A stretch of 64,000 nucleotides of DNA from Eledone cirrhosa (taxonomy: Eukaryota): NCBI GenBank assembly GCA_964016885.1, contig OZ024745.1, forward strand, positions 66,216,001 through 66,280,000, given 5' to 3'. A model generated the notes under the pieces. That model was not told where the DNA came from. It searched no databases and was given only the letters and a program-made list of their open reading frames with translations. Of this stretch, positions 1 through 44,446 are shown piece by piece. Both the position numbers and the translations under genes were made by a program. The stretch's first letter is position 1. Every line of letters begins with the position of its first letter.

Positions 1-3000
1 GGTGGTAATGATGTTGGTGGTATTGTGATCACTGGTAGTGGTGGTGGTGGTGGTAATGACGTTGGTGGTATTGTGCTCACTGGTAGTGGTGGTGGTGGTG
101 GTAATGATGTTGGTGGTATTGTGATCACTGGTAGTGGTGGTGGTGGTGGTAATGACGTTGGTGGTATTGTGCTCACTGGTAGTGGTGGTGGTGGTGGTGG
201 TGGTGGTAATGACGTTGCTGGTATTGTGCTCACTGGTAGTGGTGGTGGTGGTAATGACGTTGGTGGTATTGTGCTCACTGGTAGTGGTGGTGGTGGTGGT
301 AATGACGTTGGTGGTATTGTGCTCACTGTTAGTGGTGGTGGTGGTGGTGGTAATGACGTTGGTGGTATTGTGCTCACTGGTAGTGGTGGTGGTGGTGGTA
401 ATGACGTTGGTGGTATTGTGCTCACTGGTAGTGGTGGTGGTGGTGGTAATGACGTTGGTGGTATTGTGATCACTGGTAGTGGTGGTGGTGGTGGTAATGA
501 CGTTGGTGGTATTGTGCTCACTGGTAGTGGTGGTGGTGGTGGTAATGACGTTGCTGGTATTGTGCTCACTGGTAGTGGTGGTAATGACGTTGGTGGTATT
601 GTGCTCACTGGTAGTGGTGGTGGTAGTGGTGGTAATGACGTTGGTGGTATTGTGCTCACTGGTAGTGGTGGTGGTGGTGGTGGTAATAACGTTGGTGGTA
701 TTGTGCTCACTCATAGTGGTGGTGGTGGTGGTAATGACGTTGGTGGTATTGTGCTCACTGGTAGTGGTGGTGGTGGTGGTGGTAATGACGTTGGTGGTAT
801 TGTGCTCACTGGTAGTGGTGGTGGTGGTGGTAATGACGTTGGTGGTATTGTGCTCACTGGTAGTGGTGGTGGTGGTGGTAATGACGTTGGTGGTATTGTG
901 CTCACTGGTAGTGGTGGTGGTGGTGGTGGTAATGACGTTAGTGGTATTGTGCTCACTGGTAGTGGTGGTGGTGGTGGTGGTAATGACGTTGGTGGTATTG
1001 TGCTCACTGGTAGTGGTGGTGGTGGTGGTGGTAATGACGTTGGTGGTATTGTGCTCACTGGTAGTGGTGGTGGTGGTGGTAATGACGTTGGTGGTATTGT
1101 GCTCACTGGTAGTGGTGGTGGTGGTGGTAATGACGTTGGTGGTATTGTGCTCACTGGTAGTGGTGGTGGTGGTGGTAATGACGTTGGTGGTATTGTGCTC
1201 ACTGGTAGTAGTGGTGGTGGTGGTGGTAATGACGTTGGTGGTATTGTGATCACTGGTAGTGGTGGTGGTGGTGGTAATGACGTTGGTGGTATTGTGCTCA
1301 CTGGTAGTGGCGGTGGTGGTGGTGGTAATGACGTTGCTGGTATTGTGCTCACTGGTAGTGGTGGTAATGACGTTGGTGGTATTGTGCTCACTGGTAGTGG
1401 TGGTGGTGGTGGTAATGACGTTGGTGGTATTGTGCTCACTGGTAGTGGTGGTGGTGGTGGTAATGACGTTGGTGGTATTGTGCTCACTGGTGGTGGTGGT
1501 GGTAATGACGTTGGTGGTATTGTGCTCACTGGTAGTGGTGGTGGTGGTGGTAATGACGTTGGTGGTATTGTGCTCACTGGTAGTGGTGGTGGTGGTAATG
1601 ACGTTGGTGGTATTGTGCTCACTGGTAGTGGTGGTGGTGGTGGTAATGACGTTGGTGGTATTGTGCTCACTGGTAGTGGTGGTGGTGGTGGTGGTAATGA
1701 CGTTGGTGGTATTGTGCTCACGGGTAGTGGTGGTGGTGGTGGTAATGACGTTGGTGGTATTGTGCTCACTGGTAGTGGTGGTGGTGGTAATGACGTTGGT
1801 GGTATTGTGCTCACTGGTAGTGGTGGTGGTGGTGGTGGTAATGACGTTGGTGGTATTGTGCTCACTGGTAGTGGTGGTGGTGGTGGTAATGACGTTGGTG
1901 GTATTGTGCTCACTGGTAGTGGTGGTAATGACGTTGGAGGTATTGTGCTCACTGGTAGTGGTGGTGGTGGTGGTGGTAATGACGTTGGTGGTATTGTGCT
2001 CACTGGTAGTGGTGGTGGTGGTGGTGGTAATGACGTTGGTGGTATTGTGATCACTGGTAGTGGTGGGGGTGGTAATGACGTTGGTGGTATTGTGCTCACT
2101 GGTAGTGGTGGTGGTGGTGGTAATGACGTTGGTGGTATTGTGCTCACTGGTAGTGGTGGTAATGACGTTGGTGGTATTGTGCTCAGTGGTAGTGGTGGCG
2201 GTGGTAATGACGTTGGTGGTATTTTGCTCACTGGTAGTGGTGGTGGTGGTGGTGGTAATGACGTTGCTGGTATTGTGATCACTGGTAGTGGTGGTCGTGG
2301 TAATGACGTTGGTGGTATTATGCTCACTGGTAGTGGTGGTAATGGTGGTAATGACGTTGGTGGTATTGTGCTCACTGGTAGTGGTGGTGGTGGTAATGAC
2401 GTTGCTGGTATTGTGCTCACTGTTAGTGGTGGTAATGGTGGTAATGACGTTGGTGGTATTGTGCTCACTGGTAGTGGTGGTGGGGGTGGTAATGACGTTG
2501 GTGGTATTGTGCTCACTGGTAGTGGTGGTAATGGTGGTAATGACGTTGGTGGTATTGTGCTCAGTGGTAGTGGTGGTGGTCGTGGTAATGACGTTGGTGG
2601 TATTGTGCTCACTGGTAGTGGTGGTGGTGGTGGTGGTAATGACGTTGCTGGTATTGTGATCACTGGTAGTGGTGGTGGTCGTGGTAATGACGTTGGGGGT
2701 ATTGTGCTCACTGGTAGTGGTGGTAATGGTGGTAATGACGTTGGTGGTATTGTGCTCACTGGTAGTGGTGGTGGTGGTGGTAATGACGTTGGTGGTATTG
2801 TGCTCACTGGTAGTGGTGGTGGTGGTGGTAATGACGTTGGTGGTATTGTGCTCAGTGGTGGTGGTGGTGGTGGTGGTAATGACGTTGCTGGTATTGTGCT
2901 CACTGTTAGTGGTGGTAATGGTGGTAATGACGTTGGTGGTATTGTGCTCACTGGTAGTGGTGGTAATGGTGGTAATGACGTTGGTGTTATTGTGCTCACT

Positions 3001-6000
3001 GGTAGTGGTGGTAATGACGTTGGTGGTATTGTGCTCACTGGTAGTGGTGGTGTTGGTGGTAATGACGCTGGTGGTATTGTGCCCAGTGGTGGTGGTGGTG
3101 GTAATGACGTTGGTGATACTGTGATCACTGGTAGTGGTAATGGTGGTAATGACGTTGGTGGTATTGTGCTCACTGGTAGTGGTGGTGGTGGTAATGACGT
3201 TGGTGGTATTGTGCTCACTGGTGGTGGTGGTGGTGGTAATGACGTTGGTGGTATTGTGCTCACTGGTAGTGGTGGTGGTGGTGGTAATGACGTTGGTGGT
3301 ATTGTGCTCACTGGTAGTGGTGGTGGTGGTAATGACGTTGGTGGTATTGTGCTAAATGGTAGTGGTGGTGGTGGTGGTAATGACGTTGGGGGTATTGTAC
3401 TCACTGGTAGTGGTGGTGGTGGTGGTAATGACGTTGGGGGTATTGTACTCACTGGTAGTGGTGGTGGTGGTGGTAATGACGTTGGTGGTATTGTGCTCAC
3501 TGGTGGTGGTGGTGGTGGTGGTAATGACGCTGGTGTTATTGTGCTCACTGGTAGTAGTGGTGGTGGTGGTATTGACGTTGGTGGTATTGTGCTCACTGGT
3601 AGTAGTGGTGGTGGTGGTAATGACGTTGGTGGTATTGTGCTCACTGGTAGTGGTGGTGGTGGTGGTATTGACGTTGGTGGTATTGTGCTCACTGGTAGTA
3701 GTGGTGGTGGTGGTAATGACGTTGGTGGTATTGTGCTCACTGGTAGTAGTGGTGGTGGTGGTATTGACGTTGGTGGTATTGTGCTCACTGGTAGTGGTGG
3801 TGGTGGTGGTAATGACGTTGGTGGTATTGTGCTCACTGGTAGTGGTGGTGGTGGTGGTAATGACGTTGGTGTTATTGTGCTCAGTGGTAGTGGTGGTGGT
3901 GGTGGTAATGACGTTGGTGGTATTGTGCTCACTGGTAGTGGTGGTGGTGGTAATGACGTTGGTGGTATTGTGCTCACTGGTAGTGGTGGTGGTGGTAATG
4001 ACGTTGGTGGTATTGTGCTCACTGGTAGTGGTGGTGGTAATGACGTTGGTGTTATTGTGCTCAGTGGTAGTGGTGGTGGTAGTGGTAATGACGTTGGTGG
4101 TATTGTGCTCACTGGTAGTGGTGGTGTTGGTAATGACGTTGGTGGTATTGTGCTCACTGGTAGTGGTGGTGGTGGTAATGACGTTGGTGGTATTGTGCTC
4201 ACCGGTAGTGGTGGTGGTAATGACGTTGGTGTTATTGTGCTCAGTGGTAGTGGTGGTGGTGGTGGTAATGACGTTGGTGGTATTGTGCTCACTGGTAGTG
4301 GTGGTGGTGGTGGTAATGACGTTGGAGGTATTGTGCTCACTGGTAGTGGTGGTGGTGTTGGTAATGACGTTGGTGGTATTGTGCTCACTGGTAGTGGTGG
4401 TAGTGGTAATGACGTTGGAGGTATTGTGCTCACTGGTAGTGGTGGTGGTGGTGGTAATGACGTTGGTGGTATTGTGCTCACTGGTAGTGGTGGTGGTGGT
4501 GGTGGTAATGACGTTGGTGGTATTGTGCTCACTGGTAGTGGTGGTGGTGTTGGTAATGACGTTGGTGGTATTGTGCTCACTGGTAGTGGTGGTGGTGGTG
4601 GTGGTAATGACGTTGGTGGTATTGTGCTCACTGGTAGTGGTGGTGGTGGTGGTAATGATGTTGGTGGTATTGTGACCACTGGTAGTGGTGGTGGTGGTGG
4701 TAATGACGTTGGTGGTATTGTGCTCACTGGTAGTGGTGGTGGTGGTGGTAATGATGTTGGTGGTATTGTGATCACTGGTAGTGGTGGTGGTGGTGGTAAT
4801 GACGTTGGTGGTATTGTGCTCACTGGTAGTGGTGGTGGTGGTGGTGGTGGTGGTAATGACGTTGCTGGTATTGTGCTCACTGGTAGTGGTGGTGGTGGTA
4901 ATGACGTTGGTGGTATTGTGCTCACTGGTAGTGGTGGTGGTGGTGGTAATGACGTTGGTGGTATTGTGCTCACTGTTAGTGGTGGTGGTGGTGGTGGTAA
5001 TGACGTTGGTGGTATTGTGCTCACTGGTAGTGGTGGTGGTGGTGGTAATGACGTTGGTGGTATTGTGCTCACTGGTAGTGGTGGTGGTGGTGGTAATGAC
5101 GTTGGTGGTATTGTGATCACTGGTAGTGGTGGTGGTGGTGGTAATGACGTTGGTGGTATTGTGCTCACTGGTAGTGGTGGTGGTGGTGGTAATGACGTTG
5201 CTGGTATTGTGCTCACTGGTAGTGGTGGTAATGACGTTGGTGGTATTGTGCTCACTGGTAGTGGTGGTGGTAGTGGTGGTAATGACGTTGGTGGTATTGT
5301 GCTCACTGGTAGTGGTGGTGGTGGTGGTGGTAATGACGTTGGTGGTATTGTGCTCACTGGTAGTGGTGGTGGTGGTGGTAATGACGTTGGTGGTATTGTG
5401 CTCACTGGTAGTGGTGGTGGTGGTGGTGGTAATGACGTTGGTGGTATTGTGCTCACTGGTAGTGGTGGTGGTGGTGGTAATGACGTTGGTGGTATTGTGC
5501 TCACTGGTAGTGGTGGTGGTGGTGGTAATGACGTTGGTGGTATTGTGCTCACTGGTAGTGGTGGTGGTGGTGGTGGTAATGACGTTGGTGGTATTGTGCT
5601 CACTGGTAGTGGTGGTGGTGGTGGTGGTAATGACGTTGGTGGTATTGTGCTCACTGGTAGTGGTGGTGGTGGTGGTGGTAATGACGTTGGTGGTATTGTG
5701 CTCACTGGTAGTGGTGGTGGTGGTGGTAATGACGTTGGTGGTATTGTGCTCACTGGTAGTGGTGGTGGTGGTGGTAATGACGTTGGTGGTATTGTGCTCA
5801 CTGGTAGTGGTGGTGGTGGTGGTAATGACGTTGGTGGTATTGTGCTCACTGGTAGTAGTGGTGGTGGTGGTGGTAATGACGTTGGTGGTATTGTGATCAC
5901 TGGTAGTGGTGGTGGTGGTGGTAATGACGTTGGTGGTATTGTGCTCACTGGTAGTGGCGGTGGTGGTGGTGGTAATGACGTTGCTGGTATTGTGCTCACT

Positions 6001-9000
6001 GGTAGTGGTGGTAATGACGTTGGTGGTATTGTGCTCACTGGTAGTGGTGGTGGTGGTGGTAATGACGTTGGTGGTATTGTGCTCACTGGTAGTGGTGGTG
6101 GTGGTGGTAATGACGTTGGTGGTATTGTGCTCATGGTGGTGGTGGTGGTAATGACGTTGGTGGTATTGTGCTCACTGGTAGTGGTGGTGGTGGTGGTAAT
6201 GACGTTGGTGGTATTGTGCTCACTGGTAGTTGTGGTGGTGGTAATGACGTTGGTGGTATTGTGCTCACTGGTAGTGGTGGTGGTGGTGGTAATGACGTTG
6301 GTGGTATTGTGCTCACTGGTAGTGGTGGTGGTGGTGGTGGTAATGACGTTGGTGGTATTGTGCTCACTGGTAGTGGTGGTGGTGGTGGTAATGACGTTGG
6401 TGGTATTGTGCTCACTGGTAGTGGTGGTGGTGGTAATGACGTTGGTGGTATTGTGCTCACTGGTAGTGGTGGTGGTGGTGGTGGTAATGACGTTGGTGGT
6501 ATTGTGCTCACTGGTAGTGGTGGTGGTGGTGGTAATGACGTTGGTGGTATTGTGCTCACTGGTAGTGGTGGTAATGACGTTGGAGGTATTGTGCTCACTG
6601 GTAGTGGTGGTGGTGGTGGTGGTAATGACGTTGGTGGTATTGTGCTCACTGGTAGTGGTGGTGGTGGTGGTGGTAATGACGTTGGTGGTATTGTGATCAC
6701 TGGTAGTGGTGGGGGTGGTAATGACGTTGGTGGTATTGTGCTCACTGGTAGTGGTGGTGGTGGTGGTAATGACGTTGGTGGTATTGTGCTCACTGGTAGT
6801 GGTGGTAATGACGTTGGTGGTATTGTGCTCAGTGGTAGTGGTGGCGGTGGTAATGACGTTGGTGGTATTTTGCTCACTGGTAGTGGTGGTGGTGGTGGTG
6901 GTAATGACGTTGCTGGTATTGTGATCATTGGTAGTGGTGGTGGTGGTCGTGGTAATGACGTTGGTGGTATTATGCTCACTGGTAGTGGTGGTAATGGTGG
7001 TAATGACGTTGGTGGTATTGTGCTCACTGGTAGTGGTGGTGGTGGTAATGACGTTGCTGGTATTGTGCTCACTGTTAGTGGTGGTAATGGTGGTAATGAC
7101 GTTGGTGGTATTGTGCTCACTGGTAGTGGTGGTGGGGGTGGTAATGACGTTGGTGGTATTGTGCTCACTGGTAGTGGTGGTAATGGTGGTAATGACGTTG
7201 GTGGTATTGTGCTCAGTGGTAGTGGTGGTGGTCGTGGTAATGACGTTGGTGGTATTGTGCTCACTGGTAGTGGTGGTGGTGGTGGTGGTAATGACGTTGC
7301 TGGTATTGTGATCACTGGTAGTGGTGGTGGTCGTGGTAATGACGTTGGGGGTATTGTGCTCACTGGTAGTGGTGGTAATGGTGGTAATGACGTTGGTGGT
7401 ATTGTGCTCACTGGTAGTGGTGGTGGTGGTGGTAATGACGTTGGTGGTATTGTGCTCACTGGTAGTGGTGGTGGTGGTGGTAATGACGTTGGTGGTATTG
7501 TGCTCAGTGGTGGTGGTGGTGGTGGTGGTAATGACGTTGCTGGTATTGTGCTCACTGTTAGTGGTGGTAATGGTGGTAATGACGTTGGTGGTATTGTGCT
7601 CACTGGTAGTGGTGGTAATGGTGGTAATGACGTTGGTGGTATTGTGCTCACTGGTAGTGGTGGTAATGACGTTGGTGGTATTGTGCTCACTGGTAGTGGT
7701 GGTGTTGGTGGTAATGACGCTGGTGGTATTGTGCCCAGTGGTGGTGGTGGTGGTAATGACGTTGGTGATACTGTGATCACTGGTAGTGGTAATGGTGGTA
7801 ATGACGTTGGTGGTATTGTGCTCACTGGTAGTGGTGGTGGTGGTAATGACGTTGGTGGTATTGTGCTCACTGGTGGTGGTGGTGGTGGTAATGACGTTGG
7901 TGGTATTGTGCTCACTGGTAGTGGTGGTGGTGGTGGTAATGACGTTGGTGGTATTGTGCTCACTGGTAGTGGTGGTGGTGGTGGTAATGACGTTGGTGGT
8001 ATTGTGCTAAATGGTAGTGGTGGTGGTGGTGGTAATGACGTTGGGGGTATTGTACTCACTGGTAGTGGTGGTGGTGGTGGTAATGACGTTGGGGGTATTG
8101 TACTCACTGGTAGTGGTGGTGGTGGTGGTAATGACGTTGGTGGTATTGTGCTCACTGGTGGTGGTGGTGGTGGTGGTAATGACGCTGGTGTTATTGTGCT
8201 CACTGGTAGTAGTGGTGGTGGTGGTATTGACGTTGGTGGTATTGTGCTCACTGGTAGTAGTGGTGGTGGTATTGTGCTCACTGGTAGTGGTGGTGGTGGT
8301 GGTATTGACGTTGGTGGTATTGTGCTCACTGGTAGTAGTGGTGGTGGTGGTAATGACGTTGGTGGTATTGTGCTCACTGGTAGTAGTGGTGGTGGTGGTA
8401 TTGACGTTGGTGGTATTGTGCTCACTGGTAGTGGTGGTGGTGGTGGTTGTAATGACGTTGGTGGTATTGTGCTCACTGGTAGTGGTGGTGGTGGTGGTGG
8501 TAATGACGTTGGTGGTATTGTGCTCACTGGTAGTGGTGGTGGTGGTGGTGGTAATGACGTTGGTGGTATTGTGCTCAGTGGTGGTGATGGTGGTGGTGGT
8601 GGTAAAGACGTTGGTGGTATTGTGCTCACTGGTAGTGGTGGTGGTGGTGGTAATGACGTTGGTGGTATTGTGCTCACTGGTAGTGGTGGTGGTGGTAATG
8701 ACGTTGGTGGTATTGTGCTCACTGGTAGTGGTGGTGGTGGTGGTGGTAATGACGTTGGTGGTATTGTGCTCACTGGTAGTGGTGGTGGTGGTGGTGGTAA
8801 TGACGTTGGTGGTATTGTGCTCACTGGTAGTTGTGGTGGTGGTAATGACGTTGCTGGTATTGTGCTAAATGGTAGTGGTGGTGGTGGTAATGACGTTGGT
8901 GGTATTGTGCTCACTGGTAGTGGTGGTGGTGGTAATGACGTTGGTGGTATTGTGCTCAGTGGTGGTGGTGGTGGTGGTGGTAATGACGTTGGTGGTATTT

Positions 9001-12000
9001 TGCTCACTGGTAGTGGTGGTGGTGGTAATGACGTTGGTGGTATTGTGCTCACTGGTAGTGGTGGTGGTGGTGGTAATGACGTTGGTGGTATTGTGCTCAC
9101 TGGTATTGGTGGTGGTGGTGGTGGTAATGACGTTGGTGGTATTGTGCTCACTGGTAGTGGTGGTGGTGGTGGTAATGACGTTGGTGGTATTGTGCTCACT
9201 GGTAGTGGTGGTGGTGGTGGTAATGACGTTGGTGGTATTGTGCTCAGTGGTAGTGGTGGTGGTGGTGGTAATGACGTTGGTGGTATTGTGCTCAGTGGTA
9301 GTGGTGGTGGTCGTGGTAATGACGTTGGTGGTATTGTGCTCACTGGTAGTGGTGGTGGTGGTGGTGGTAATGACGTTGCTGGTATTGTGATCACTGGTAG
9401 TGGTGGTGGTGGTGGTAATGACGTTGGTGGTATTGTGCTCACTGGTAGTGGTGGTAATGGTGGTAATGACGTTGGTGGTATTGTGCTCACTGGTAGTGGT
9501 GGTGGTGGTGGTAATGACGTTGGTGGTATTGTGCTCACTGGTAGTGGTGGTGGTGGTAATGACGTTGGTGGTATTGTGCTCACTGGTAGTGGTGGTGTTG
9601 GTGGTAATGACGCTGGTGGTATTGTGCCCAGTGGTGGTGGTGGTGGTGGTGGTGGTAATGACGTTGGTGGTATTGTGCTCACTGGTAGTGGTGGTGGTGG
9701 TGGTAATGACGTTGGTGGTATTGTGCTCAGTGGTAGTGGTGGTGGTGGTGGTATTGACGTTGGTGGTATTGTGCTCACTGGTAGTGGTGGTGGTGGTATT
9801 GACGTTGGTGGTATTGTGCTCACTGGTAGTGGTGGTGGTGGTGGTGGTAATGACGTTGCTGGTATTGTGATCACTGGTAGTGGTGGTGGTCGTGGTAATG
9901 ACGCTGGTGGTATTGTGCCCAGTGGTGGTGGTGGTGGTGGTGGTAATGACGTTGGTGGTATTGTGCTCACTGGTAGTGGTGGTGGTGGTGGTAATGACGT
10001 TGGTGGTATTGTGCCCAGTGGTGGTGGTGGTGGTGGTGGTAATGACGCTGGTGGTATTGTGCCGAGTGGTGGTGGTGGTGGTGGTGGTAATGACGTTGTG
10101 GTATTGTGCTCACTGTTAGTGGTGGTAATGGTGGTAATGACGTTGGTGGTATTGTGCTCACTGGTAGTGCTGGTGGTGGTGGTAATGACGTTGGTGGTAT
10201 TGTGCTCACTGGTAGTAGTGGTGGTGGTGGTAATGACGTTGGTGGTATTGTGCTCACTGGTGTTGGTGGTGGTGGTGGTAATGACGCTGGTGGTATTGTG
10301 CTCACTGGTAGTGGTGGTGGTGGTGGTGGTATTGACGTTGGTGGTATTGTGCTCACTGGTAGTGGTGGTGGTGGTGGTAATGACGTTGGTGGTATTGTGC
10401 TCACTGGTAGTGGTGGTGGTGGTGGTGGTGGTATTGACGTTGGTGGTATTGTGCTCATTGGTAGTGGTGGTGGTGGTGGTGGTAATGACGTTGGTGGTAT
10501 TGTGCTCACTGGTAGTAGTGGCGGTGGTGGTATTGACGTTGGTGGTATTGTGCTCAGTGGTGGTGGTGGTAATGACGTTGGTGGTATTGTGCTCACTGGT
10601 AGTGGTGGTGGTGGTGGTGGTAATGACGTTGGTGGTATTGTGCTCACTGTTAGTGGTGGTGGTGGTGGTAATGACGTTGGTGGTATTGTGCTCAGTGGTG
10701 GTGGTGGTGGTGGTAATGACGTTGGTGGTATTGTGCTCACTGGTAGTGGTGGTGGTGGTGGTAATGACGTTGGTGGTATTGTGCTCACTGGTAGTGGTGG
10801 TGGTGGTAATGACGTTGCTGGTATTGTGCTAAATGGTAGTGGTGGTGGTGGTAATGACGTTGGTGGTATTGTGCTCAGTGGTAGTAGTGGTAACGGTGGT
10901 AATGACGTTGGTGGTATTGTGCTCAGTGGTAGTGGTGGTGGTGGTAATGACGTTGGTGGTATTGTGCTCACTGGTAGTGGTGGTGGTCGTAATGACGTTG
11001 GTGGTATTGTGCTCACTGGTAGTGGTGGTGGTGGTAATGACGTTGGCGGTATTGTGCTCACTGGTAGTGGTGGTGGTGGTGGTGGTAATGACGTTGGTGG
11101 TATTGTGCTCACTGGTAGTGGTGGTGGTGGTAATGACGTTGGTGGTATTGTGCTCACTGGTAGTGGTGGTGGTGGTGGTAATGACGTTGGTGGTATTGTG
11201 CTCACTGGTAGTGGTGGTGGTGTTGGTGGTAATGACGTTGGTGGTATTGTGCTCACTGGTAGTGGTGGTGGTGGTGGTAATGACGTTGGTGGTATTGTGC
11301 TCACTGGTAGTGGTGGTGGTGGTAATGACGTTGGTGGTATTGTGCTCACTGGTAGTGGTGGTGGTGGTGGTGGTAATGAAGTTGGTGGTATTGTGCTCAC
11401 TGGTAGTGGTGGTGGTGGTAATGACGTTGGTGGTATTGTGCTCACTGGTAGTGGTGGTAATGACGTTGGAGGTATTGTGCTCACTGGTAGTGGTGGTGGT
11501 GGTGGTGGTAATGACGTTGGTGGTATTGTGCTCACTGGTAGTGGTGGTGGTGGTGGTGGTAATGACGTTGGGGGTATTGTGATCACTGGTAGTGGTGGGG
11601 GTGGTAATGACGTTGGTGGTATTGTGCTCACTGGTAGTGGTGGTGGTGGTGGTAATGACGTTGGTGGTATTGTGCTCACTGGTAGTGGTGGTAATGACGT
11701 TGGTGGTATTGTGCTCAGTGGTAGTGGTGGCGGTGGTAATGACGTTGGTGGTATTGTGCTCACTGGTAGTGGTGGTGGTGGTGGTGGTGGGAATGACGTT
11801 GCTGGTATTGTGATCACTGGTAGTGGTGGTGGTCGTGGTAATGACGTTGGTGGTATTGTGCTCCTTGGTAGTGGTGGTAATGGTGGTAATGACGTTGGTG
11901 GTATTGTGCTCACTGGTAGTGGTGGTGGTGGTAATGACGTTGGTGGTATTGTGCTCACTGGTAGTGGTGGTGTTGGTGGTAATGACGCTGGTGGTATTGT

Positions 12001-18000: not shown

Positions 18001-21000
18001 CTGGTAGTGGTGGTGGTGGTAATGATGTTGATGGTATTGTGCTCACTGGTAGTGGTGGTGGTGGTGGTAATGACGTTGGTGGTATTGTGCTCACTGGTAG
18101 TAGTGGTGGTGGTGGTATTGACGTTGGTGGTATTGTGCTCACTGGTGGTGGTGGTGGTGGTAATGACGTTGGTGGTATTGTGCTCAGTGGTGGTCGTGGT
18201 GGTGGTGGTGGTAATGACGATGGTGGTATTGTGCTCAGTGGTGGTGGTGGTGGTGGTGGTAATGACGTTGGTGGTATTGTGCTCAGTGGTGGTGGTGGTG
18301 GTGGTGGTGGTAATGATGTTGGTGGTATTGTGCTCAGTGGTGGTGGTGGTGGTGGTGGTAATGACGTTGGTGGTATTGTGCTCAGTGGTGGTGGTGGTGG
18401 TGGTGGTGGTGGTAATGATGTTGGTGGTATTGTGCTCAATGCTGGTGGTGGTGGTGGTGGTAATGACGTTGGTGGTATTGTGCTCAGTGGTGGTGGTGGT
18501 GGTGGTGGTGGTAATGATGTTGGTGGTATTGTGCTCACTGGTGGTGGTAATGACGTTGGTGGTATTGTGCTCAGTGGTGGTGGTGGTGGTGTTAATGACG
18601 TTGGTGGTATTGTGCTCAGTGGTGGTGGTGGTGGTAATGACGTTGGTGGTATTTTGCTCACTGGTAGTGGTGGTGGTGGTGGTAATGACGTTGGTGGTAT
18701 TGTGCTCAGTGGTGGTGGTGGTGGTGCTGGTAATGACGTTGGTGGTATTGTGCTCAGTGGTGGTGGTGGTGGTGGTGGTAATGACGTTGGTGGTATTTTG
18801 CTCACTGGTGGTGGTGGTGGTGGTAATGACGTTGGTGGTATTGTGCTCACTGGTAGTGGTGGTGGTGGTGGTAATGACGTTGGTGGTATTGTACTCACTG
18901 GTAGTAGTGGTGGTGGTGGTAATGACGTTGGTGGTATTGTGCTCAGTGGTGGTGGTGGTGGTGGTGGTAATGACGTTGGTGGTATTGTGCTAAATGGTAG
19001 TGGTGGTGGTGGTGGTAATGACGTTGGGGGTATTGTACTCACTGGTAGTGGTGGTGGTGGTGGTAATGACGTTGGGGGTATTGTACTCACTGGTAGTGGC
19101 GGTGGTGGTGGTAATGACGTTGGTGGTATTGTGCTCACTGGTGGTGGTGGTGGTGGTGGTGGTAGTGACGCTGGTGTTATTGTGCTCACTGGTGGTGGTG
19201 GTGGTGGTAATGACGTTGGTGGTATTGTGTTCACTGGTAGTGGTGGTGGTGGTAATGATGTTGATGGTATTGTGCTCACTGGTAGTGGTGGTGGTGGTGG
19301 TAATGACGTTGGTGGTATTGTGCTCACTGGTAGTAGTGGTGGTGGTGGTAGTGACGTTGGTGGTATTGTGCTCACTGGTAGTGGTGGTGGTGGTGGTATT
19401 GACGTTGGTGGTATTGTGCTCACTGGTAGTAGTGGTGGTGGTGGTATTGACGTTGGTGGTATTGTGCTCAGTGGTGGTGGTGGTGGTGGTAATGACGTTG
19501 GTGGTATTGTGCTCACTGGTAGTGGTGGCGGTGGTGGTGGTAATGACGTTGGTGGTATTGTGCTCACTGGTAGTGGTGGTGGTGGTAATGACGTTGGTGG
19601 TATTGTGCTCAGTGGTGGTGGTGGTGGTGGTGGTAATGACGTTGGTGGTATTGTGCTCACTGGTAGTGGTGGTGGTGGTGGTAATGACGTTGGTGGTATT
19701 GTGATCACTGGTAGTAGTAGTGGTGGTGGTGGTAATGACGTTGGTGGTATTGTGCTCAATGGTAGTAGTGGTGGTGGTAATGACGTTGGTGGTATTGTGC
19801 TCACTGGTAGTGGTGGTGGTGGTGGTAATGACGTTGGTGGTATTGTGCTCACTGGTAGTGGTGGTGGTGGTAATGACGTTGGTGGTATTGTGCTCACTGG
19901 TAGTGGTGGTGGTGGTGGTGGTAATGACGTTGGTGGTATTGTGCTCACTGGTAGTGGTGGTGGTGGTGGTGGTAATGACGTTGGTGGTATTGTGATCACT
20001 GGTAGTAGTAGTGGTGGTGGTGGTAATGACGTTGGTGGTATTGTGCTCACTGGTAGTAGTGGTGTTGGTGGTAATGACGCTGGTGGTATTGTGCTCAGTG
20101 GTGGTGGTGGTGGTGGTGGTGGTGGTGGTGGTGGTAATGACGTTGGTGGTATTGTGCTCAGTGGTGGTGGTGGTGGTGGTGGTGGTAATGACGTTGGTGG
20201 TATTGTGCTCACTGGTAGTGGTGGTGGTGGTGGTAATGACGTTGGTGGTATTGTGTTCACTGGTAGTGGTGGTGGTGGTAATGACGTTGGTGGTATTGTG
20301 CTCACTGGTAGTGGTGGTGGTGGTGGTAATGACGTTGGTGGTATTGTGCTCAGTGGTGGTGGTGGTGGTGGTGGTAATGACAATGCTGGTATTGTGCTCA
20401 GTGGTGGTGGTGGTGGTGCTGGTAATGACGTTGGTGGTATTGTGCTCAGTGGTGGTGGTGGTGGTGGTGGTGGTAATGATGTTGGTGGTATTGTGCTCAG
20501 TGGTGGTGGTGGTGGTGGTGGTGGTAATGACGATGCTGGTATTGTGCTCAGTGGTGGTGGTGGTGGTGCTGGTAATGACGTTGGTGGTATTGTGCTCAGT
20601 GGTGGTGGTGGTGGTGGTGGTGGTAATGATGTTGGTGGTATTGTGCTCAGTGGTGGTGGTGGTGGTGGTGGTAATGACGTTGGTGGTATTGTGCTCAGTG
20701 GTGGTGGTGGTGGTGGTGGTGGTGGTAATGATGTTGGTGGTATTGTGCTCACTGGTAGTGGTGGTGGTGGTGGTAATGACGTTGGTGGTATTGTGCTCAC
20801 TGGTAGTGGTGGTGGTGGTGGTAATGACGTTGATGGTATTGTGCTCAGTGGTGGTGGTGGTGGTGGTGGTGGTAATGACGATGCTGGTATTGTGCTCAGT
20901 GGTGGTGGTGGTGGTGGTAATGACGTTGGTGGTATTGTGCTCAGTGGTGGTGGTGGTGGTGGTAGTGGTGGTAATGATGTTGGTGGTATTGTGCTCAGTG

Positions 21001-24000
21001 GTGGTGGTGGTGGTGGTGGTGGTAATGACGTTGGTGGTATTGTGCTCAGTGGTGGTGGTGGTGGTGGTAATGATGTTGGTGGTATTGTGCACAATGGTGG
21101 TGGTGGTGGTGGTAATGACGTTGGTGGTATTGTGCTCAGTGGTGGTGGTGGTGGTGGTGGTGGTAATGACGTTGGTGGTATTGTGCTCACTGGTGGTGGT
21201 GGTGGTGGTGGTAATGACGTTGGTGGTATTGTGCTCAGTGGTGGTGGTGGTGGTGGTGGTAATGACGTTGGTGGTATTGTGCTCAGTGGTGGTGGTAATG
21301 ACGTTGGTGGTATTTTGCTCACTGGTAGTGGTGGTGGTGGTGGTAATGACGTTGGTGGTATTGTGCTCAGTGGTGGTGGTGGTGGTGGTAATGACGTTGG
21401 TGGTATTGTGCTCAGTGATGGTGGTGGTGGTAATGACGTTGGTGGTATTTTGCTCACTGGTAGTGGTGGTGGTGGTGGTAATGACGTTGGTGGTATTTTG
21501 CTCACTGGTGGTGGTGGTGGTGGTAATGACGTTGGTGGTATTGTGCTCACTGGTAGTGGTGGTGGTGGTGGTGGTAATGACGTTGGTGGTATTGTGCTCA
21601 GTGGTGGTGGTGGTGGTGGTGGTGGTAATGATGTTGGTGGTATTGTGCTCAGTGGTGGTGGTGGTGGTGGTGGTAATGACGTTGGTGGTATTGTGCTCAG
21701 TGGTGGTGGTTGTGGTGGTGGTAATGACGTTGGTGGTATTGTGCTCACTGGTAGTGGTGGTGGTGGTGGTAATGACGTTGGTGGTATTGTGTTCACTGGT
21801 AGTGGTGGTGGTGGTAATGACGTTGGTGGTATTGTGCTCACTGGTAGTGGTGGTGGTGGTGGTAATGACGTTGGTGGTATTGTGCTCAGTGGTGGCGGTG
21901 GTGGTGGTGGTGGTAATGACGATGCTGGTATTGTGCTCAGTGGTGGTGGTGGTGGTGCTGGTAATGACGTTGGTGGTATTGTGCTCAGTGGTGGTGGTGG
22001 TGGTGGTGGTGGTGGTGGTGGTAATGATGTTGGTGGTATTGTGCTCAGTGGTGGTGGTGGTGGTGGTGGTAATGACGTTGGTGGTATTGTGCTCAGTGGT
22101 GGTGGTGGTGGTGGTGGTGGTAATGATGTTGGTGGTATTGTGCTCACTGGTAGTGGTGGTGGTGGTGGTAATGACGTTGGTGGTATTGTGCTCACTGGTA
22201 GTGGTGGTGGTGGTGGTAATGACGTTGGTGGTATTGTGCTCAGTGGTGGTGGTGGTGGTGGTGGTGGTAATGACGATGCTGGTATTGTGCTCAGTGGTGG
22301 TGGTGGTGGTGGTGGTAATGACGTTGGTGGTATTGTGCTCAGTGGTGGTGGTGGTGGTGGTGGTGGTAATGATGTTGGTGGTATTGTGCTCAGTGGTGGT
22401 GGTGGTGATGGTGGTGGTAATGATGTTGGTGGTATTGTGCTCAATGGTGGTGGTGGTGGTGGTGGTGGTAATGACGTTGGTGGTATTGTGCTCAGTGGTG
22501 GTGGTGGTGGTGGTGGTGGTGGTGGTAATGACGTTGGTGGTATGGTGCTCACTGGTGGTGGTGGTGGTGGTGGTAATGACGTTGGTGGTATTGTGCTCAC
22601 TGGTGGTGGTGGTGGTGGTAATGACGTTGGTGGTATTGTGCTCAGTGGCGGTCGTGGTGGTGGTGGTGGTAATGACGATGGTGGTATTGTGCTCAGTGGT
22701 GGTGGTGGTGGTGGTGGTAATGACGTTGGTGGTATTGTGCTCAGTGGTGGTGGTGGTGGTGGTGGTGGTAATGATGTTGGTGGTATTGTGCTCAGTGGTG
22801 GTGGTGGTGGTGGTGGTAATGACGTTGGTGGTATTGTGCTCAGTGGTGGTGGTGGTGGTGGTGGTGGTGGTAATGATGTTGGTGGTATTGTGCTCAATGG
22901 AGGTGGTGGTGGTGGTGGTAATGACGTTGGTGGTATTGTGCTCAGTGGTGGTGGTGGTGGTGGTGGTGGTAATGATGTTGGTGGTATTGTGCTCACTGGT
23001 GGTGGTAATGACGTTGGTGGTATTGTGCTCAGTGGTGGTGGTGGTGGTGGTGTTAATGACGTTGGTGGTATTGTGCTCAGTGGTGGTGGTGGTGGTAATG
23101 ACGTTGGTGGTATTTTGCTCACTGGTAGTGGTGGTGGTGGTGGTAATGACGTTGGTGGTATTGTGCTCAGTGGTGGTGGTGGTGGTGGTGGTAATGACGT
23201 TGGTGGTATTGTGCTCAGTGGTGGTGGTGGTGGTGGTGGTAATGACGTTGGTGGTATTTTGCTCACTGGTGGTGGTGGTGGTGGTAATGACGTTGGTGGT
23301 ATTGTGCTCACTGGTAGTGGTGGTGGTGGTGGTAATGACGTTGGTGGTATTGTACTCACTGGTAGTAGTGGTAATGGTGGTAATGACGTTGGTGGTATTG
23401 TGCTCAGTGGTGGTGGTGGTGGTGGTGGTAATGACGTTGGTGGTATTGTGCTAAATGGTAGCGGTGGTGGTGGTGGTAATGACGTTGGGGGTATTGTACT
23501 CACTGGTAGTGGTGGTGGTGGTGGTAATGACGTTGGGGGTATTGTACTCACTGGTAGTGGCGGTGGTGGTGGTAATGACGTTGGTGGTATTGTGCTCACT
23601 GGTGGTGGTGGTGGTGGTGGTGGTAGTGACGCTGGTGTTATTGTGCTCACTGGTGGTGGTGGTGGTGGTAATGACGTTGGTGGTATTGTGTTCACTGGTA
23701 GTGGTGGTGGTGGTAATGATGTTGATGGTATTGTGCTCACTGGTAGTGGTGGTGGTGGTGGTAATGACGTTGGTGGTATTGTGCTCACTGGTAGTAGTGG
23801 TGGTGGTGGTAGTGACGTTGGTGGTATTGTGCTCACTGGTAGTGGTGGTGGTGGTGGTATTGACGTTGGTGGTATTGTGCTCACTGGTAGTAGTGGTGGT
23901 GGTGGTATTGACGTTGGTGGTATTGTGCTCAGTGGTGGTGGTGGTGGTGGTAATGACGTTGGTGGTATTGTGCTCACTGGTAGTGGTGGCGGTGGTGGTG

Positions 24001-27000
24001 GTAATGACGTTGGTGGTATTGTGCTCACTGGTAGTGGTGGTGGTGGTAATGACGTTGGTGGTATTGTGCTCAGTGGTGGTGGTGGTGGTAATGACGTTGG
24101 TGGTATTGTGCTCACTGGTAGTGGTGGTGGTGGTGGTAATGACGTTGGTGGTATTGTGATCACTGGTAGTAGTAGTGGTGGTGGTGGTAATGACGTTGGT
24201 GGTATTGTGCTCACTGGTAGTAGTGGTGGTGGTAATGACGTTGGTGGTATTGTGCTCACTGGTAGTGGTGGTGGTGGTGGTAATGACGTTGGTGGTATTG
24301 TGCTCACTGGTAGTGGTGGTGGTGGTAATGACGTTGGTGGTATTGTGCTCACTGGTAGTGGTGGTGGTGGTGGTGGTAATGACGTTGGTGGTATTGTGCT
24401 CACTGGTAGTGGTGGTGGTGGTGGTGGTAATGACGTTGGTGGTATTGTGATCACTGGTAGTAGTAGTGGTGGTGGTGGTAATGACGTTGGTGGTATTGTG
24501 CTCACTGGTAGTAGTGGTGTTGGTGGTAATGACGCTGGTGGTATTGTGCTCAGTGGTGGTGGTGGTGGTGGTGGTGGTGGTGGTGGTGGTAATGACGTTG
24601 GTGGTATTGTGCTCAGTGGTGGTGGTGGTGGTGGTGGTGGTAATGACGTTGGTGGTATTGTGCTCACTGGTAGTGGTGGTGGTGGTGGTAATGACGTTGG
24701 TGGTATTGTGTTCACTGGTAGTGGTGGTGGTGGTAATGACGTTGGTGGTATTGTGCTCACTGGTAGTGGTGGTGGTGGTGGTAATGACGTTGGTGGTATT
24801 GTGCTCAGTGGTGGTGGTGGTGGTGGTGGTAATGACAATGCTGGTATTGTGCTCAGTGGTGGTGGTGGTGGTGCTGGTAATGACGTTGGTGGTATTGTGC
24901 TCAGTGGTGGTGGTGGTGGTGGTGGTGGTAATGATGTTGGTGGTATTGTGCTCAGTGGTGGTGGTGGTGGTGGTGGTGGTAATGACGATGCTGGTATTGT
25001 GCTCAGTGGTGGTGGTGGTGGTGCTGGTAATGACGTTGGTGGTATTGTGCTCAGTGGTGGTGGTGGTGGTGGTGGTAATGACGTTGGTGGTATTGTGCTC
25101 AGTGGTGGTGGTGGTGGTGGTGGTGGTGGTAATGATGTTGGTGGTATTGTGCTCACTGGTAGTGGTGGTGGTGGTGGTAATGACGTTGGTGGTATTGTGC
25201 TCACTGGTAGTGGTGGTGGTGGTGGTAATGACGTTGGTGGTATTGTGCTCAGTGGTGGTGGTGGTGGTGGTGGTGGTAATGACGATGCTGGTATTGTGCT
25301 CAGTGGTGGTGGTGGTGGTGGTAATGACGTTGGTGGTATTGTGCTCAGTGGTGGTGGTGGTGGTGGTAGTGGTGGTAATGATGTTGGTGGTATTGTGCTC
25401 AGTGGTGGTGGTGGTGGTGGTGGTAATGACGTTGGTGGTATTGTGCTCAGTGGTGGTGGTGGTGGTGGTAATGATGTTGGTGGTATTGTGCACAATGGTG
25501 GTGGTGGTGGTGGTAATGACGTTGGTGGTATTGTGCTCAGTGGTGGTGGTGGTGGTGGTGGTGGTAATGACGTTGGTGGTATTGTGCTCACTGGTGGTGG
25601 TGGTGGTGGTGGTGGTAATGACGTTGGTGGTATTGTGCTCAGTGGTGGTGGTGGTGGTGGTGGTAATGACGTTGGTGGTATTGTGCTCAGTGGTGGTGGT
25701 AATGACGTTGGTGGTATTTTGCTCACTGGTAGTGGTGGTGGTGGTGGTAATGACGTTGGTGGTATTGTGCTCAGTGGTGGTGGTGGTGGTGGTAATGACG
25801 TTGGTGGTATTGTGCTCAGTGATGGTGGTGGTGGTAATGACGTTGGTGGTATTTTGCTCACTGGTAGTGGTGGTGGTGGTGGTAATGACGTTGGTGGTAT
25901 TTTGCTCACTGGTGGTGGTGGTGGTGGTAATGACGTTGGTGGTATTGTGCTCACTGGTAGTGGTGGTGGTGGTGGTGGTAATGACGTTGGTGGTATTGTG
26001 CTCAGTGGTGGTGGTGGTGGTGGTGGTGGTAATGATGTTGGTGGTATTGTGCTCAGTGGTGGTGGTGGTGGTGGTGGTAATGACGTTGGTGGTATTGTGC
26101 TCAGTGGTGGTGGTTGTGGTGGTGGTAATGACGTTGGTGGTATTGTGCTCACTGGTAGTGGTGGTGGTGGTGGTAATGACGTTGGTGGTATTGTGTTCAC
26201 TGGTAGTGGTGGTGGTGGTAATGACGTTGGTGGTATTGTGCTCACTGGTAGTGGTGGTGGTGGTGGTAATGACGTTGGTGGTATTGTGCTCAGTGGTGGC
26301 GGTGGTGGTGGTGGTGGTAATGACGATGCTGGTATTGTGCTCAGTGGTGGTGGTGGTGGTGCTGGTAATGACGTTGGTGGTATTGTGCTCAGTGGTGGTG
26401 GTGGTGGTGGTGGTGGTGGTGGTGGTAATGATGTTGGTGGTATTGTGCTCAGTGGTGGTGGTGGTGGTGGTGGTAATGACGTTGGTGGTATTGTGCTCAG
26501 TGGTGGTGGTGGTGGTGGTGGTGGTAATGATGTTGGTGGTATTGTGCTCACTGGTAGTGGTGGTGGTGGTGGTAATGACGTTGGTGGTATTGTGCTCACT
26601 GGTAGTGGTGGTGGTGGTGGTAATGACGTTGGTGGTATTGTGCTCAGTGGTGGTGGTGGTGGTGGTGGTGGTAATGACGATGCTGGTATTGTGCTCAGTG
26701 GTGGTGGTGGTGGTGGTGGTAATGACGTTGGTGGTATTGTGCTCAGTGGTGGTGGTGGTGGTGGTGGTGGTGGTAATGATGTTGGTGGTATTGTGCTCAG
26801 TGGTGGTGGTGGTGATGGTGGTGGTAATGATGTTGGTGGTATTGTGCTCAATGGTGGTGGTGGTGGTGGTGGTGGTAATGACGTTGGTGGTATTGTGCTC
26901 AGTGGTGGTGGTGGTGGTGGTGGTGGTAATGACGTTGGTGGTATGGTGCTCACTGGTGGTGGTGGTGGTGGTGGTAATGACGTTGGTGGTATTGTGCTCA

Positions 27001-29151
27001 GTGGTGGTGGTGGTGGTGGTAATGACGTTGGTGGTATTGTGCTCAGTGGTGGTGGTGGTGGTGGTGGTAATGACGTTGGTGGTATTTTGCTCACTGGTAG
27101 TGGTGGTGGTGGTGGTAATGACGTTGGTGGTATTGTGCTCAGTGGTGGTGGTGGTGGTGGTAATGACGTTGGTGGTATTGTGCTCAGTGATGGTGGTGGT
27201 GGTGGTGGTGGTGGTGGTGGTAATGACGTTGGTGGTATTTTGCTCACTGGTAGTGGTGGTGGTGGTGGTGGTAATGACGTTGGTGGTATTTTGCTCACTG
27301 GTGGTGGTGGTGGTGGTAATGACGTTGGTGGTATTGTGCTCACTGGTAGTGGTGGTGGTGGTGGTGGTAATGACGTTGGTGGTATTGTGCTCAGTGGTGG
27401 TGGTGGTGGTGGTGGTGGTAATGATGTTGGTGGTATTGTGCTCAGTGGTGGTGGTGGTGGTGGTGGTGGTAATGACGTTGGTGGTATTTTGCTCACTGGT
27501 AGTGGTGGTGCTGGTGGTAATTACGTTGCTGGTATTGTGCTCACTTGTAGTAGTGGTGGTGGTGGTGGTAATGACGTTGGTGGAATTGTGCTCACTGGTA
27601 GTGGTCGTAGTGGTGGTAATGACGTTGGTGGAATTGTGCTCACTGGTAGTGGTGGTGGTGGTAATGACGTTGGTGGTATTGTGCTCAGTGGTGGTGGTGG
27701 TGGTGGTGGTGGTAATGACGATGCTGGTATTGTGCTCAGTGGTGGTGGTGGTGGTGGTGGTAATGACGTTGGTGGTATTGTGCTCAGTGGTGGTGGTGGT
27801 GGTGGTGGTGGTAATGATGTTGGTGGTATTGTGCTCAGTGGTGGTGGTGGTGATGGTGGTGGTAATGATGTTGGTGGTATTGTGCTCAATGGTGGTGGTG
27901 GTGGTGGTGGTGGTAATGACGTTGGTGGTATTGTGCTCAGTGGTGGTGGTGGTGGTGGTGGTGGTAATGACGTTGGTGGTATGGTGCTCACTGGTGGTGG
28001 TGGTGGTGGTGGTAATGACGTTGGTGGTATTGTGCTCAGTGGTGGTGGTGGTGGTGGTAATGACGTTGGTGGTATTGTGCTCAGTGGTGGTGGTGGTGGT
28101 GGTGGTAATGACGTTGGTGGTATTTTGCTCACTGGTAGTGGTGGTGGTGGTGGTAATGACGTTGGTGGTATTGTGCTCAGTGGTGGTGGTGGTGGTGGTA
28201 ATGACGTTGGTGGTATTGTGCTCAGTGATGGTGGTGGTGGTGGTGGTGGTGGTGGTGGTAATGACGTTGGTGGTATTTTGCTCACTGGTAGTGGTGGTGG
28301 TGGTGGTGGTAATGACGTTGGTGGTATTTTGCTCACTGGTGGTGGTGGTGGTGGTAATGACGTTGGTGGTATTGTGCTCACTGGTAGTGGTGGTGGTGGT
28401 GGTGGTAATGACGTTGGTGGTATTGTGCTCAGTGGTGGTGGTGGTGGTGGTGGTGGTAATGATGTTGGTGGTATTGTGCTCAGTGGTGGTGGTGGTGGTG
28501 GTGGTGGTAATGACGTTGGTGGTATTTTGCTCACTGGTAGTGGTGGTGGTGGTGGTAATTACGTTGCTGGTATTGTGCTCACTTGTAGTAGTGGTGGTGG
28601 TGGTGGTAATGACGTTGGTGGAATTGTGCTCACTGGTAGTGGTCGTAGTGGTGGTAATGACGTTGGTGGAATTGTGCTCACTGGTAGTGGTGGTGGTGGT
28701 AATGACGTTGGTGGTATTGTGCTCACTGGTAGTGGTGGTGGTGGTGGTGGTAATGACGTTGGTGGTATTGTGTTCACTGGTAGTGGTGGTGGGGGTGGTA
28801 ATGACGTTGGTGGTATTGTGCTCACTGGTAGTGGTGGTGGTGGTATTTACGTTGGTGGTATTGTGATCACTGGTAGTAGTGGTAATGGTGGTAATGACGT
28901 TGGTGGTATTGTGCTCACTGGTAGTGGTGGTGGGGGTGGTAATGACGTTGGTGGTATTGTGCTCACTGGTAGTAGTAGTAATGGTGGTAATGACGTTGGT
29001 GGTATTGTGCTCACTGGTAGTAGTGGTGGTGGTAATGACGTTGGTGGTATTGTGCTCACTGGTAGTGGTGGTGGTGGTATTGACGTTGGTGGTTGTGCTC
29101 ACTGGTAGTAGTGGTAATGGTGGTAATGACGTTGGTGGTATTGTGCTCAGT
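1..29151. repeat. Giant G/T-rich tandem array (composite minisatellite: fixed ~27-nt core + variable (GGT)n tail), truncated at left window edge
   Basis: Consensus GGT(GGT)n-AATGACGTTGGTGGTATTGTGCTCACT-GGTAGT recurs without interruption from base 1 to the last core at ~29125-29151 (...gtgctcagt). Unit length varies in steps of 3. The + strand is extremely G/T-skewed. Confidence 0.99.
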
Positions 29152-29160
29152 GTTATTTAA
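1..29160 (+). CDS. Candidate (unproven) giant Gly-rich repeat protein, [G(n)NDVGGIVL(T/S)GS]n, broken by 6 indels, ending ...GGIVLSVI*
   Basis: The Gly frame has no substitution-derived stops and shifts only at indels near 6133, 10098, 14243, 17031, 17761 and 29092. It ends at TAA 29158-29160 just past the array, and there is an AATAAA at 29476-29481. No consensus codon in this frame is one substitution from a stop, so its openness is weak evidence. Confidence 0.2.
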
Positions 29161-29210
29161 TGGAAGTGTGTTTCCTTTTGCCTTTTGTGTTTCAATTACA
29201 TGTTTGTTCT
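1..29210 (-). CDS. Alternative candidate (unproven) minus-strand readings: Thr-rich mucin-like [T(n)SEHNTTNVI]n or Pro-rich FH1-like [P(n)[11 protein letters not shown]]n
   Basis: The Thr frame runs 19 codons into unique flank ([25 protein letters not shown]) but has ~10 TAG stops from the CTA-AAT variant. The Pro frame has stops at 711, 27521, 28559, 28847 and a TAA just upstream of the array. A polypyrimidine+AG acceptor-like site lies at 29392-29415 (-). Confidence 0.2.
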
Positions 29211-29588
29211 ATTTTTACTGCTTCTAATGTTGTTGCTGTGATTCTGGTGGTGGAGGTAGAAGCATGGGTCAGCTGCAGGCCTTGAAAATCCTTCACAATG
29301 AAAGAATGTGGTCGAGGGAGAAACAATGTCCACCTACTCCTAGAAACTGTTCACTAATGGTTGCCAAAAACAAATGCCCTACTCGGTTTACCTTGAAAAA
29401 AAATACAGAAGTTTTTAAATTATTTTTTTTTAATTTGCCTAGAAGGGTCACTATTGTAAAGGTACCTAATTGTAAAATAAAGTAACCAACTTTATTCACA
29501 ATTTAGTAACAATTAGAATAGTTTCAATAGGAAGTGTAGTGCAAGTGACACACTTATGACCTGAAGTGATAACAGGATGTGGCAAATA

Positions 29589-30135
29589 TCTACTTATATA
29601 TATAACCAGCAATTTCTCTGTCTGTCTGTCCGACAGTGGAAACACGTGCGTAGAGAGAGAGTGAGAGTGAAAGAAAGAGACAGACTACGAGAGGGGGATA
29701 GCGGGAGGGAGAGAGAGAGAGTGAATAGACGCTAAAACACGTGCTACAGAAACATTACCTTCCCATCTCCACTGACTTTGGTCACTGAGGCCGAGGGACT
29801 CGCGGTGAGCGCGTCATAATGACGTAATGCAGACAGCCAGACATACAGACAGATATTATAAGGGCGCGACGTTATATCTATGTATCTATCTAAAAAGAAA
29901 AACTAAGAATTATATAGAGAGAACGCTAAATCGCCTAATGCGGTCCCTAGGGCATTACAAATTTGAAATAATTTTTGCTCAAAACACTCACAGGACCATA
30001 AGTATTACATGTCTAAAGTTTGAAAACAATCGGTTGGATGGTTCTCAAGTTTTAGTGAGCTGACAGACAGACAGACATTCTCTGTTTTAGATCTATAGAC
30101 TAGCAGAAAACCGCCCCCGTGTGGTTTTCTGCTAG
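29589..30135 (+). mobile_element. Non-autonomous Helitron-like element (copy 1)
   Basis: Starts A|TC...TATATATA...(CTGT)n. Ends with hairpin CTAGCAGAAAACC...GGTTTTCTGCTAG, i.e. terminal CTAG|T. Has a subterminal (CTGT)n/(ACAG)n inverted motif. Confidence 0.6.
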
Positions 30136-31017: not shown

Positions 31018-31032
31018 TATATAATAATGATA

Positions 31033-31572: not shown

Positions 31573-31599
31573 AATGATAATAATAAAAATAAATATTAA

Positions 31600-44277: not shown

Positions 44278-44446
44278 TTGGTATATATATATATATATAT
44301 ATATATGTATGCATGTATGTATACACACACATATATATGGATGTACCATTCGAGAAAATATAAAACTATGCATCAGTGAGATCCAGAGACCCCAGCCTCT
44401 CTGGAAGGTTGGTAGTCTCTCTTCAATACCGACTTGGTTTATATAG

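Follow-up and report, generated by a model that had tools for sequence, protein, structure and literature searches.

Minisatellites, also known as variable-number tandem repeats (VNTRs), consist of units tens of bases long, joined head to tail at a single locus, and the origin model of Haber and Louis (1998), as summarised in the accessible part of PMC6947457, has them start from short look-alike ends and grow through slippage, conversion, or unequal crossing-over, with arrays there of up to ~100 units. A tandem array with units of this form at one place, and for which we propose growth of the same kind, lies in the cephalopod Eledone cirrhosa in a 64,000-nucleotide stretch of the 134.7-Mb contig OZ024745.1 (C5) of a 3.0-Gb assembly (GCA_964016885.1); we call this stretch, C5:66,216,001-66,280,000, the window. 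The array differs from the minisatellite model in its 707 units and in that every unit contains its own variable GGT microsatellite. An initial annotation of the window had read it as either a giant coding VNTR exon or a satellite grown from one; the observations behind this were largely right, and the satellite half of it stands, while the coding half is not supported and an origin from an exon is not needed. Judged from the sequence, the array is likely a single-locus non-coding minisatellite, which would have grown from a degenerate GGT/ACC tract through slippage and kilobase-scale block duplications.

The array also resembles "midisatellites", such as human D1Z2 at 1p36, in which a minisatellite-sized unit forms a long array at a single locus; D1Z2 runs to hundreds of kilobases and is subtelomeric, whereas the array here is 34 kb and mid-contig. 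Formin FH1 regions, which span tens to a few hundred residues, resemble one frame of the array in their interrupted poly-Pro, but no FH2 match was found on the contig. Mucin exons with Pro/Thr/Ser-rich (PTS) VNTRs share triplet phasing, similar length, and a Thr-rich strand opposite a Gly/Val-rich open frame with the array, whose minus-strand Thr frame, in predicted translation, has the Thr/Ser/Pro-rich repeat make-up of the PTS class. According to the accessible part of PMC13345508, mucin exons keep their open reading frame (ORF) in 94.8-100% of haplotypes, with MUC1 at 84.8% and MUC19 in none, and human alleles reach 27,843 bp in MUC4 and 23,080 amino acids in MUC12. Such exons join signal-peptide exons and exons for VWD/cystine-knot or SEA/transmembrane regions, whereas no partner of this kind was found in the flank ORFs scanned around the array, which also departs from them in its seven frameshifts, its 12 stops in the Thr frame, and its lack of an in-frame start or a good acceptor at the entry.

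Tandem Repeats Finder (TRF) reported the array at window positions 1-29,149 with a period of 48, 607.6 copies, and 87% matches, and together with unit parsing it gave 608 units at 1..29152, with no strand assigned. The left edge, which the initial annotation could not see, was located 4,690 bases left of the window, 4.7 kb further than the window shows, and the complete array is C5:66,211,310-66,245,152 (33.8 kb), with 99 of its units to the left. As had been described from the window, there are several hundred units with a fixed core and a variable triplet tail: the unit is an 11-triplet core (9-11 triplets) followed by a (GGT)n tail of variable length. Unit lengths range from 30 to 63 nt with a mode of 48 nt (357 of 706 measured units), 699 of the 706 are multiples of 3, and 187 distinct units occur; on average, 1.07 of the 33 core positions depart from the base that is most common in their column. 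The array opens with a tail and closes with a core, and its two ends are alike at 6 of 8 bases, a weak signal in GT-rich DNA.

The unit is confined to this locus. All 333 exact matches of a 23-mer in the whole 3.0 Gb fell inside the array (reversed-pattern control, 0), as did 699 of the 704 obtained with a 21-mer when up to 2 mismatches were allowed (reversed-pattern control, 5+23); the right flank had 1 match in the genome and the left flank 1 full match plus 3 short weak ones. The pattern of a multi-locus or megabase-array satellite was thus not seen in the genome, the unit being limited to one 33.8-kb locus. The initial annotation had taken the same unit at several unlinked loci as one of the marks of a satellite; occurrence at a single locus fits a minisatellite and a gene equally. 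Features that do characterise minisatellites were found: a head-to-tail unit within ~10-100 bases, confinement to one locus with unique flanks, and interspersed variant units together with internal block duplications (0.7-4.6 kb).

Four in-register frames are mostly open, Gly and Val on the plus strand and Thr and Pro on the minus strand; the three translations quoted in the initial annotation are correct, and the Val-rich frame had been overlooked. Over the 699 frame-keeping units there are 0 in-register stops in the Gly frame, 12 in Thr, 4 in Pro, and 45 in Val, and a raw count over 1-29,160 gives 327/862/586/315/107/203 stops for the six frames. No frame traverses the array in any of the six, and the longest stop-free stretch in 1-29,160, found by frame scan at 17007..29105 on the plus strand, has 4,033 codons, starts within the array, and runs in the Val register and then in the Gly register; the ~9,700-residue protein once suggested is not supported. 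Exactly six frame-breaking units lie in the window, the number counted at the outset, at 6109, 10089, 14201, 17002, 17732, and 29079, and a seventh frameshift, a 1-base deletion, lies outside it in the array's second unit on the left. On the right, the last unit but one (29079..29124) carries a 2-base deletion that parts the right flank from the main register; both array ends are therefore frameshifted in their second unit, and neither flank opens into the main register.

The interior breaks are of two kinds. Private 1-base deletions were found in three units (no strand assigned), by unit comparison at 6109..6149 and 10089..10135 and by unit parsing, in the tail, at 14201..14247; the first is recent or an assembly error, since its sister unit at 1462 is intact, and the best sister of the second, at 15304, keeps frame. 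At 16708..18116, a 730-bp block duplication holds 14 identical units twice, and a 4-base insertion at 17002 recurs at 17732. This insertion brings a TAG into the Gly frame and, being present in both duplicated blocks, is unlikely to be an assembly error. Even with the three 1-base deletions set aside, the shifts at both ends remain, as does the insertion with its second copy. In the Thr frame, a TAG variant occurs in 12 units spread over ~28 kb, the first 4,520 bases before the window begins and the last at 23,430; ten of them are in the window at 3331, 7986, 8844, 10808, 12917, 14066, 14156, 16027, 18969, and 23430 (3331..23477, minus strand) and two to its left. The duplicated insertion and the Thr stop in 12 units show that broken frames were tolerated as the array grew.

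Open frames are no more frequent here than the composition of the unit predicts. When the unit was shuffled by triplets, at least 4 of 6 frames were open in 4,191 of 5,000 cases; base shuffles gave 2,291 of 5,000, and random mutation of (GGT)16 units 4,242 of 5,000. A unit of this make-up is thus expected to have four open frames, without excess over chance. The zero stops in the Gly frame are likewise uninformative, because none of the 99 single changes to the modal core can create one. The ratio of non-synonymous to synonymous changes (pN/pS), computed for 53 distinct core variants in 698 units, was 1.10 for Gly, 0.87 for Thr, 1.04 for Val, and 1.05 for Pro (Fisher p 0.63-1.0), and no codon-level selection was detected with it in any of the four open frames; by triplet position the 53 variants fall 16/21/16. 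In the tails, just 29 of 198 non-GGT triplets are synonymous GGN changes, and weighted changes in the Gly frame are 637 non-synonymous versus 113 synonymous. Indels are not below background either: six independent events were counted against 53 core substitution classes, where 3.1 were expected from the rate in 278 duplicated pairs of background DNA, which have 0.058 non-triplet gaps for each substitution.

We looked for the parts of a gene on either side of the array. Splice sites were judged by base counts rather than with a trained splice model. At the right end, the entry side for a minus-strand gene, the Thr register is stop-free for 1,901 codons (23454..29156, minus strand), with no Met and with a stop directly upstream; there is no Met in the entry Pro frame either, and this frame stops at 28845, within the first units from the entry. 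AGs able to enter the main Thr register have a T-fraction of 0.05-0.25, versus 0.65 at the acceptor of a true repeat exon on the same contig (below). Upstream on the minus strand, 90 bases are Ser/Thr-rich behind a moderate AG (T 0.50), and two frameshifts and a stop lie between that AG and the main register. On the plus strand, a T-rich AG (T 0.60) stands 20 bases before the array, and the frame that it opens is lost to a shift in unit 2 and meets a stop in unit 4.

Among 446 flanking ORFs within ~150-185 kb, a filtered subset, the only Pfam domains above cut-off were retroelement domains and one PHD finger in a reverse-transcriptase ORF, and there were no signal-peptide, VWD, SEA, or cystine-knot families. 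From the window and the 5 kb to its left, the scan took 113 minus-strand ORFs of at least 48 codons that passed the complexity filter (rest of window), 35 on the left, and 2 on the plus strand; from the left 150 kb it took 146 (128 of 164 past the filters, plus 18), and from the 150 kb right of the window 109 of 209, plus 41 plus-strand window ORFs. Matches to FSAP, Gp6, C1, MCR_C, and PAP2_C below the cut-off were dismissed as chance. A likeness to Mak10/NAA35 on the minus strand 134 kb to the left (C5:66,077,5xx) was rejected as a host gene at 23.1 bits against a cut-off of 24; Mak10 has stronger matches on contig C4, no relative was found, and the likeness may come from a decayed copy of the gene on C4 or be accidental. 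Genome-wide, 0 of 20 FH2 matches (90 of 90 candidates scored) and 2 of 72 VWD matches, at 67.56 Mb, were on C5; the SEA search matched nothing anywhere in the genome and is uninformative. The formin idea of the initial annotation finds no footing in these results, and its mucin idea fares little better, the nearest VWD gene being 1.2 Mb off and the Thr frame lacking a Met and a good acceptor and holding a stop in 12 units. We also rejected a link between the array and the VWD gene itself, which closes in its own cystine-knot exon (C5:67,446,761-67,447,105; E 2.4e-4, below cut-off), 1.2 Mb from the array, and then a stop.

The same contig supplies two controls. A true Thr/Pro VNTR exon at C5:67,473,957-67,479,224 on the minus strand is 5.2 kb long and has one frame of 1,756 codons without stop or shift, with unique coding ends, a T-rich AG acceptor, and a GT donor; its opposite strand is open too, for 1,728 codons, and Gly/Val-rich. 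Its Thr codons are mixed (ACA 363, ACT 428, ACC 47), and those of the array are ACC in 5,389 of 6,191 cases. The other control is a 620-bp degenerate (GGT)n tract between predicted exons of the VWD gene (~C5:67.456 Mb; L055:6380-6997), which is repetitive internally and has Gly, Val, Thr, and His frames that are open and closed by stops; it is likely to resemble the seed that we propose for the array. Because this intronic tract gives similar open frames, growth from an exon need not be invoked. The gene around the two controls, C5:67,446,761-67,580,000 on the minus strand, is itself SCO-spondin-like or gel-forming-mucin-like (VWD, C8, TIL, LDLa, TSP1, cystine knot) and contains a tandem repeat of exon plus intron with a period of 5,777 bp, an intact multi-exon macrosatellite in which 10 copies of one exon-bearing stretch are 100% identical and 12 are related at 88-89%.

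Protein searches, which are weak for low-complexity queries, were run with the open frames. With 8,000 candidates scored for each query (165-525 and 176-2,000 amino acids long, respectively), neither 300 amino acids of the Thr frame nor 100 amino acids of the Gly frame had a relative at E<=0.001. With 68 amino acids of the Thr frame, 1 match (37% identical) was obtained among 1.84 billion representatives; it is an intermediate-filament protein whose acidic repeat is unrelated, and it was discarded. An Atlas search gave a best value of 0.84 (recognition 657), a lead at most. Three sequencing runs from one sample covered the unique flank at window 29,170-35,200 at an even depth of ~8-18 with no splice-like joint among the joints shown; they look like genomic DNA and are hence silent on expression and indels. 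At window 29428, contigs from 2 of the 3 runs show a T/G difference, likely a second haplotype. Among the papers that literature searches listed, none dealt with an array of this sort in cephalopods.

How the array came about can be proposed in four steps. The seed would have been a decayed GGT/ACC triplet tract of a few hundred bases, because both flanks keep a weak 3-base periodicity and a similar small intronic tract exists on the contig; the 200 bases on each side stand at the 97th (left) and 93rd (right) percentile of 1,139 background bins, and the single-copy right flank at 29153..29359, no strand assigned, is likely a remnant of the parent tract. A piece of ~50 bases may then first have doubled through slippage between the short look-alike ends (6 of 8 bases). 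Slippage of GGT within units would explain why lengths vary in steps of three, and the caveat in the initial annotation that such slippage preserves frame holds. Finally, block duplications, likely by unequal exchange, would have lengthened the array and spread variants, including stop codons and one frameshift. Duplicated blocks of 0.7, 1.0, 2.8, 4.4, and 4.6 kb are present: the region 3619..8451 copies a block whose start lies 1,022 bases outside the window on the left (lag 98 units or 4,641 bp; 85 of 102 units identical), and 18213..27117 holds a duplication with a lag of 91-92 units (4.4 kb), with 42 of 54 and 34 of 44 units identical; neither has an assigned strand. Some variants are limited to parts of the array, and these together with the block duplications record its later growth, for which unequal exchange is the presumed process. 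The open frames would then be a by-product, since steps of three and moves of whole units hold the register and, in the modal unit, every codon of the Gly frame is more than one change away from a stop. Instability driven by G-quadruplexes was also considered and has little support, G4Hunter giving a modest mean of 0.69 with 2% of 25-base windows at or above 1.2.

Several points weigh against a non-coding minisatellite. No frameshift event exceeds two copies, versus 32 of 53 substitution classes with at least 3 copies (Fisher p 0.007, or 0.03 for the 4 interior events); between higher-order copies only 1 non-triplet indel was seen versus 92 substitutions, where ~5 were expected. The background rate predicts just 1.9 spread indels, with P(0) of 0.16, and many of the substitutions between higher-order copies are probably converted old variants. 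Assembly errors may account for the three private 1-base deletions, and at the break rate of the array the true Thr/Pro exon would be expected to carry 2.9 breaks, so that its observed none has a P of only ~0.05. pN/pS has low power in repeats, the true exon itself reaching only 0.71 on 26 variants, and the flank scan, of filtered ORFs of at least 40-48 codons, misses short or family-less exons. The flank periodicity is weak evidence in GT-rich DNA, and size does not exclude coding, because MUC4 and MUC12 reach such lengths (PMC13345508, accessible part). A coding alternative is that the array forms the very large middle exon of a gene particular to this lineage, one that arose out of a GGT microsatellite and is either live on another haplotype or only just dead; the predicted protein of 7,000-11,000 residues would be Gly-rich if read from the plus strand, or Thr-rich and N-glycosylated if read from the minus strand, and the failure of frameshifts to spread beyond two copies would be a trace of selection. 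We regard this as unlikely.

It is quite unlikely that the array is a dead mucin-like exon on the minus strand, in which a Thr-rich N-x-T reading once coded, lost its entry, and expanded as junk. The composition of the Thr frame is like that of a mucin, and its modal unit includes an N-x-T site; the frame also has the lowest pN/pS, though not significantly so, and is preceded by the Ser/Thr-rich bases behind an AG, and human MUC19 lacks a complete ORF in any long-read haplotype in the accessible part of PMC13345508. Yet its stop variant occurs array-wide, also within duplicated blocks, and the frame must therefore have been broken before the array did much of its growing; between its main register and the upstream AG lie two frameshifts and a stop, its Thr codons are nearly all ACC, and none of the mucin partner families was found among the flank ORFs scanned. 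A live exon for a Gly-rich structural protein on the plus strand, with the single-base deletions as assembly errors or recent private events, would agree with the absence of in-register stops in 699 units, with frameshifts that have not spread, and with the T-rich AG ahead of the array. It is very unlikely all the same: no single core change can make a Gly-frame stop, the frame from that AG is lost within four units, the duplicated insertion introduces a TAG, non-synonymous changes dominate, and no protein relative was found among the 8,000 candidates, the last a weak point. It is equally improbable that the array, while non-coding, has a function in its own right, as a seed of heterochromatin or a centromere or as a transcribed satellite; the array sits at 49% of the contig in retroelement-rich DNA with no host exon recognised and has higher-order structure, but it is 34 kb on one contig only, its G4Hunter score is modest, and position alone shows nothing. 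The poly-proline region of a formin, read from the minus-strand Pro frame, is almost certainly wrong and already contradicted, for this interrupted poly-Pro with just 4 in-register stops has no FH2 match on C5, no Met at the entry, an early stop at 28845, and a pN/pS of 1.05.

The DNA around the array is AT-rich and laden with (TA)n. High-copy interspersed repeats adjoin it at 29574..31593 (no strand assigned), where the summed contig depth is at least ~10^5 versus ~10 in unique DNA, and further very high-copy short interspersed repeats lie at window 33816-34421; one motif in the high-copy repeats resembles what we take to be a short interspersed element (SINE) of octopus genomes. About 530 bases left of the array lies a 2.2-kb remnant of a long terminal repeat (LTR) element (L002:2555-4786), with two direct repeats of 350-400 bp that are 82% alike, a purine-tract-like motif, and a primer-site-like motif presumably matching tRNA-Trp; no Pfam match was found in the ORFs scanned there. 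The reverse-transcriptase ORF with the PHD finger occupies window 42972-44372 on the minus strand (467 codons; reverse transcriptase, E 7e-23, then PHD finger, E 7e-6) and is likely a fragment of a non-LTR retroelement. Within 150 kb the flanks contain several reverse-transcriptase and GIY-YIG ORFs, a pairing that we assume to be Penelope-like, and one integrase ORF (L008, L014, L016, L067), as well as kilobase-long (TA)n-type tracts, the longest of 5.8 kb (L065). Other minisatellites were seen at window 53715-53923 (33-bp unit, 6.3 copies) and, at kilobase length, with a 16-bp unit (L041:1-3964) and a 28-bp unit (L046:4831-6406); since they occur in 2 of 12 arbitrarily chosen 10-kb stretches, kilobase minisatellites are not rare in this genome.

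Were the array coding after all, a microsatellite would have turned into one of the largest exons known. If, as we think likely, it is a non-coding minisatellite, it would be an ordinary but long single-locus example of its kind, useful as a warning and as a test case: a GGT-derived repeat can hold four frames open over thousands of codons although no gene underlies them, and the same contig offers a genuine repeat exon of the mucin type, at a distance of 1.2 Mb, for comparison.

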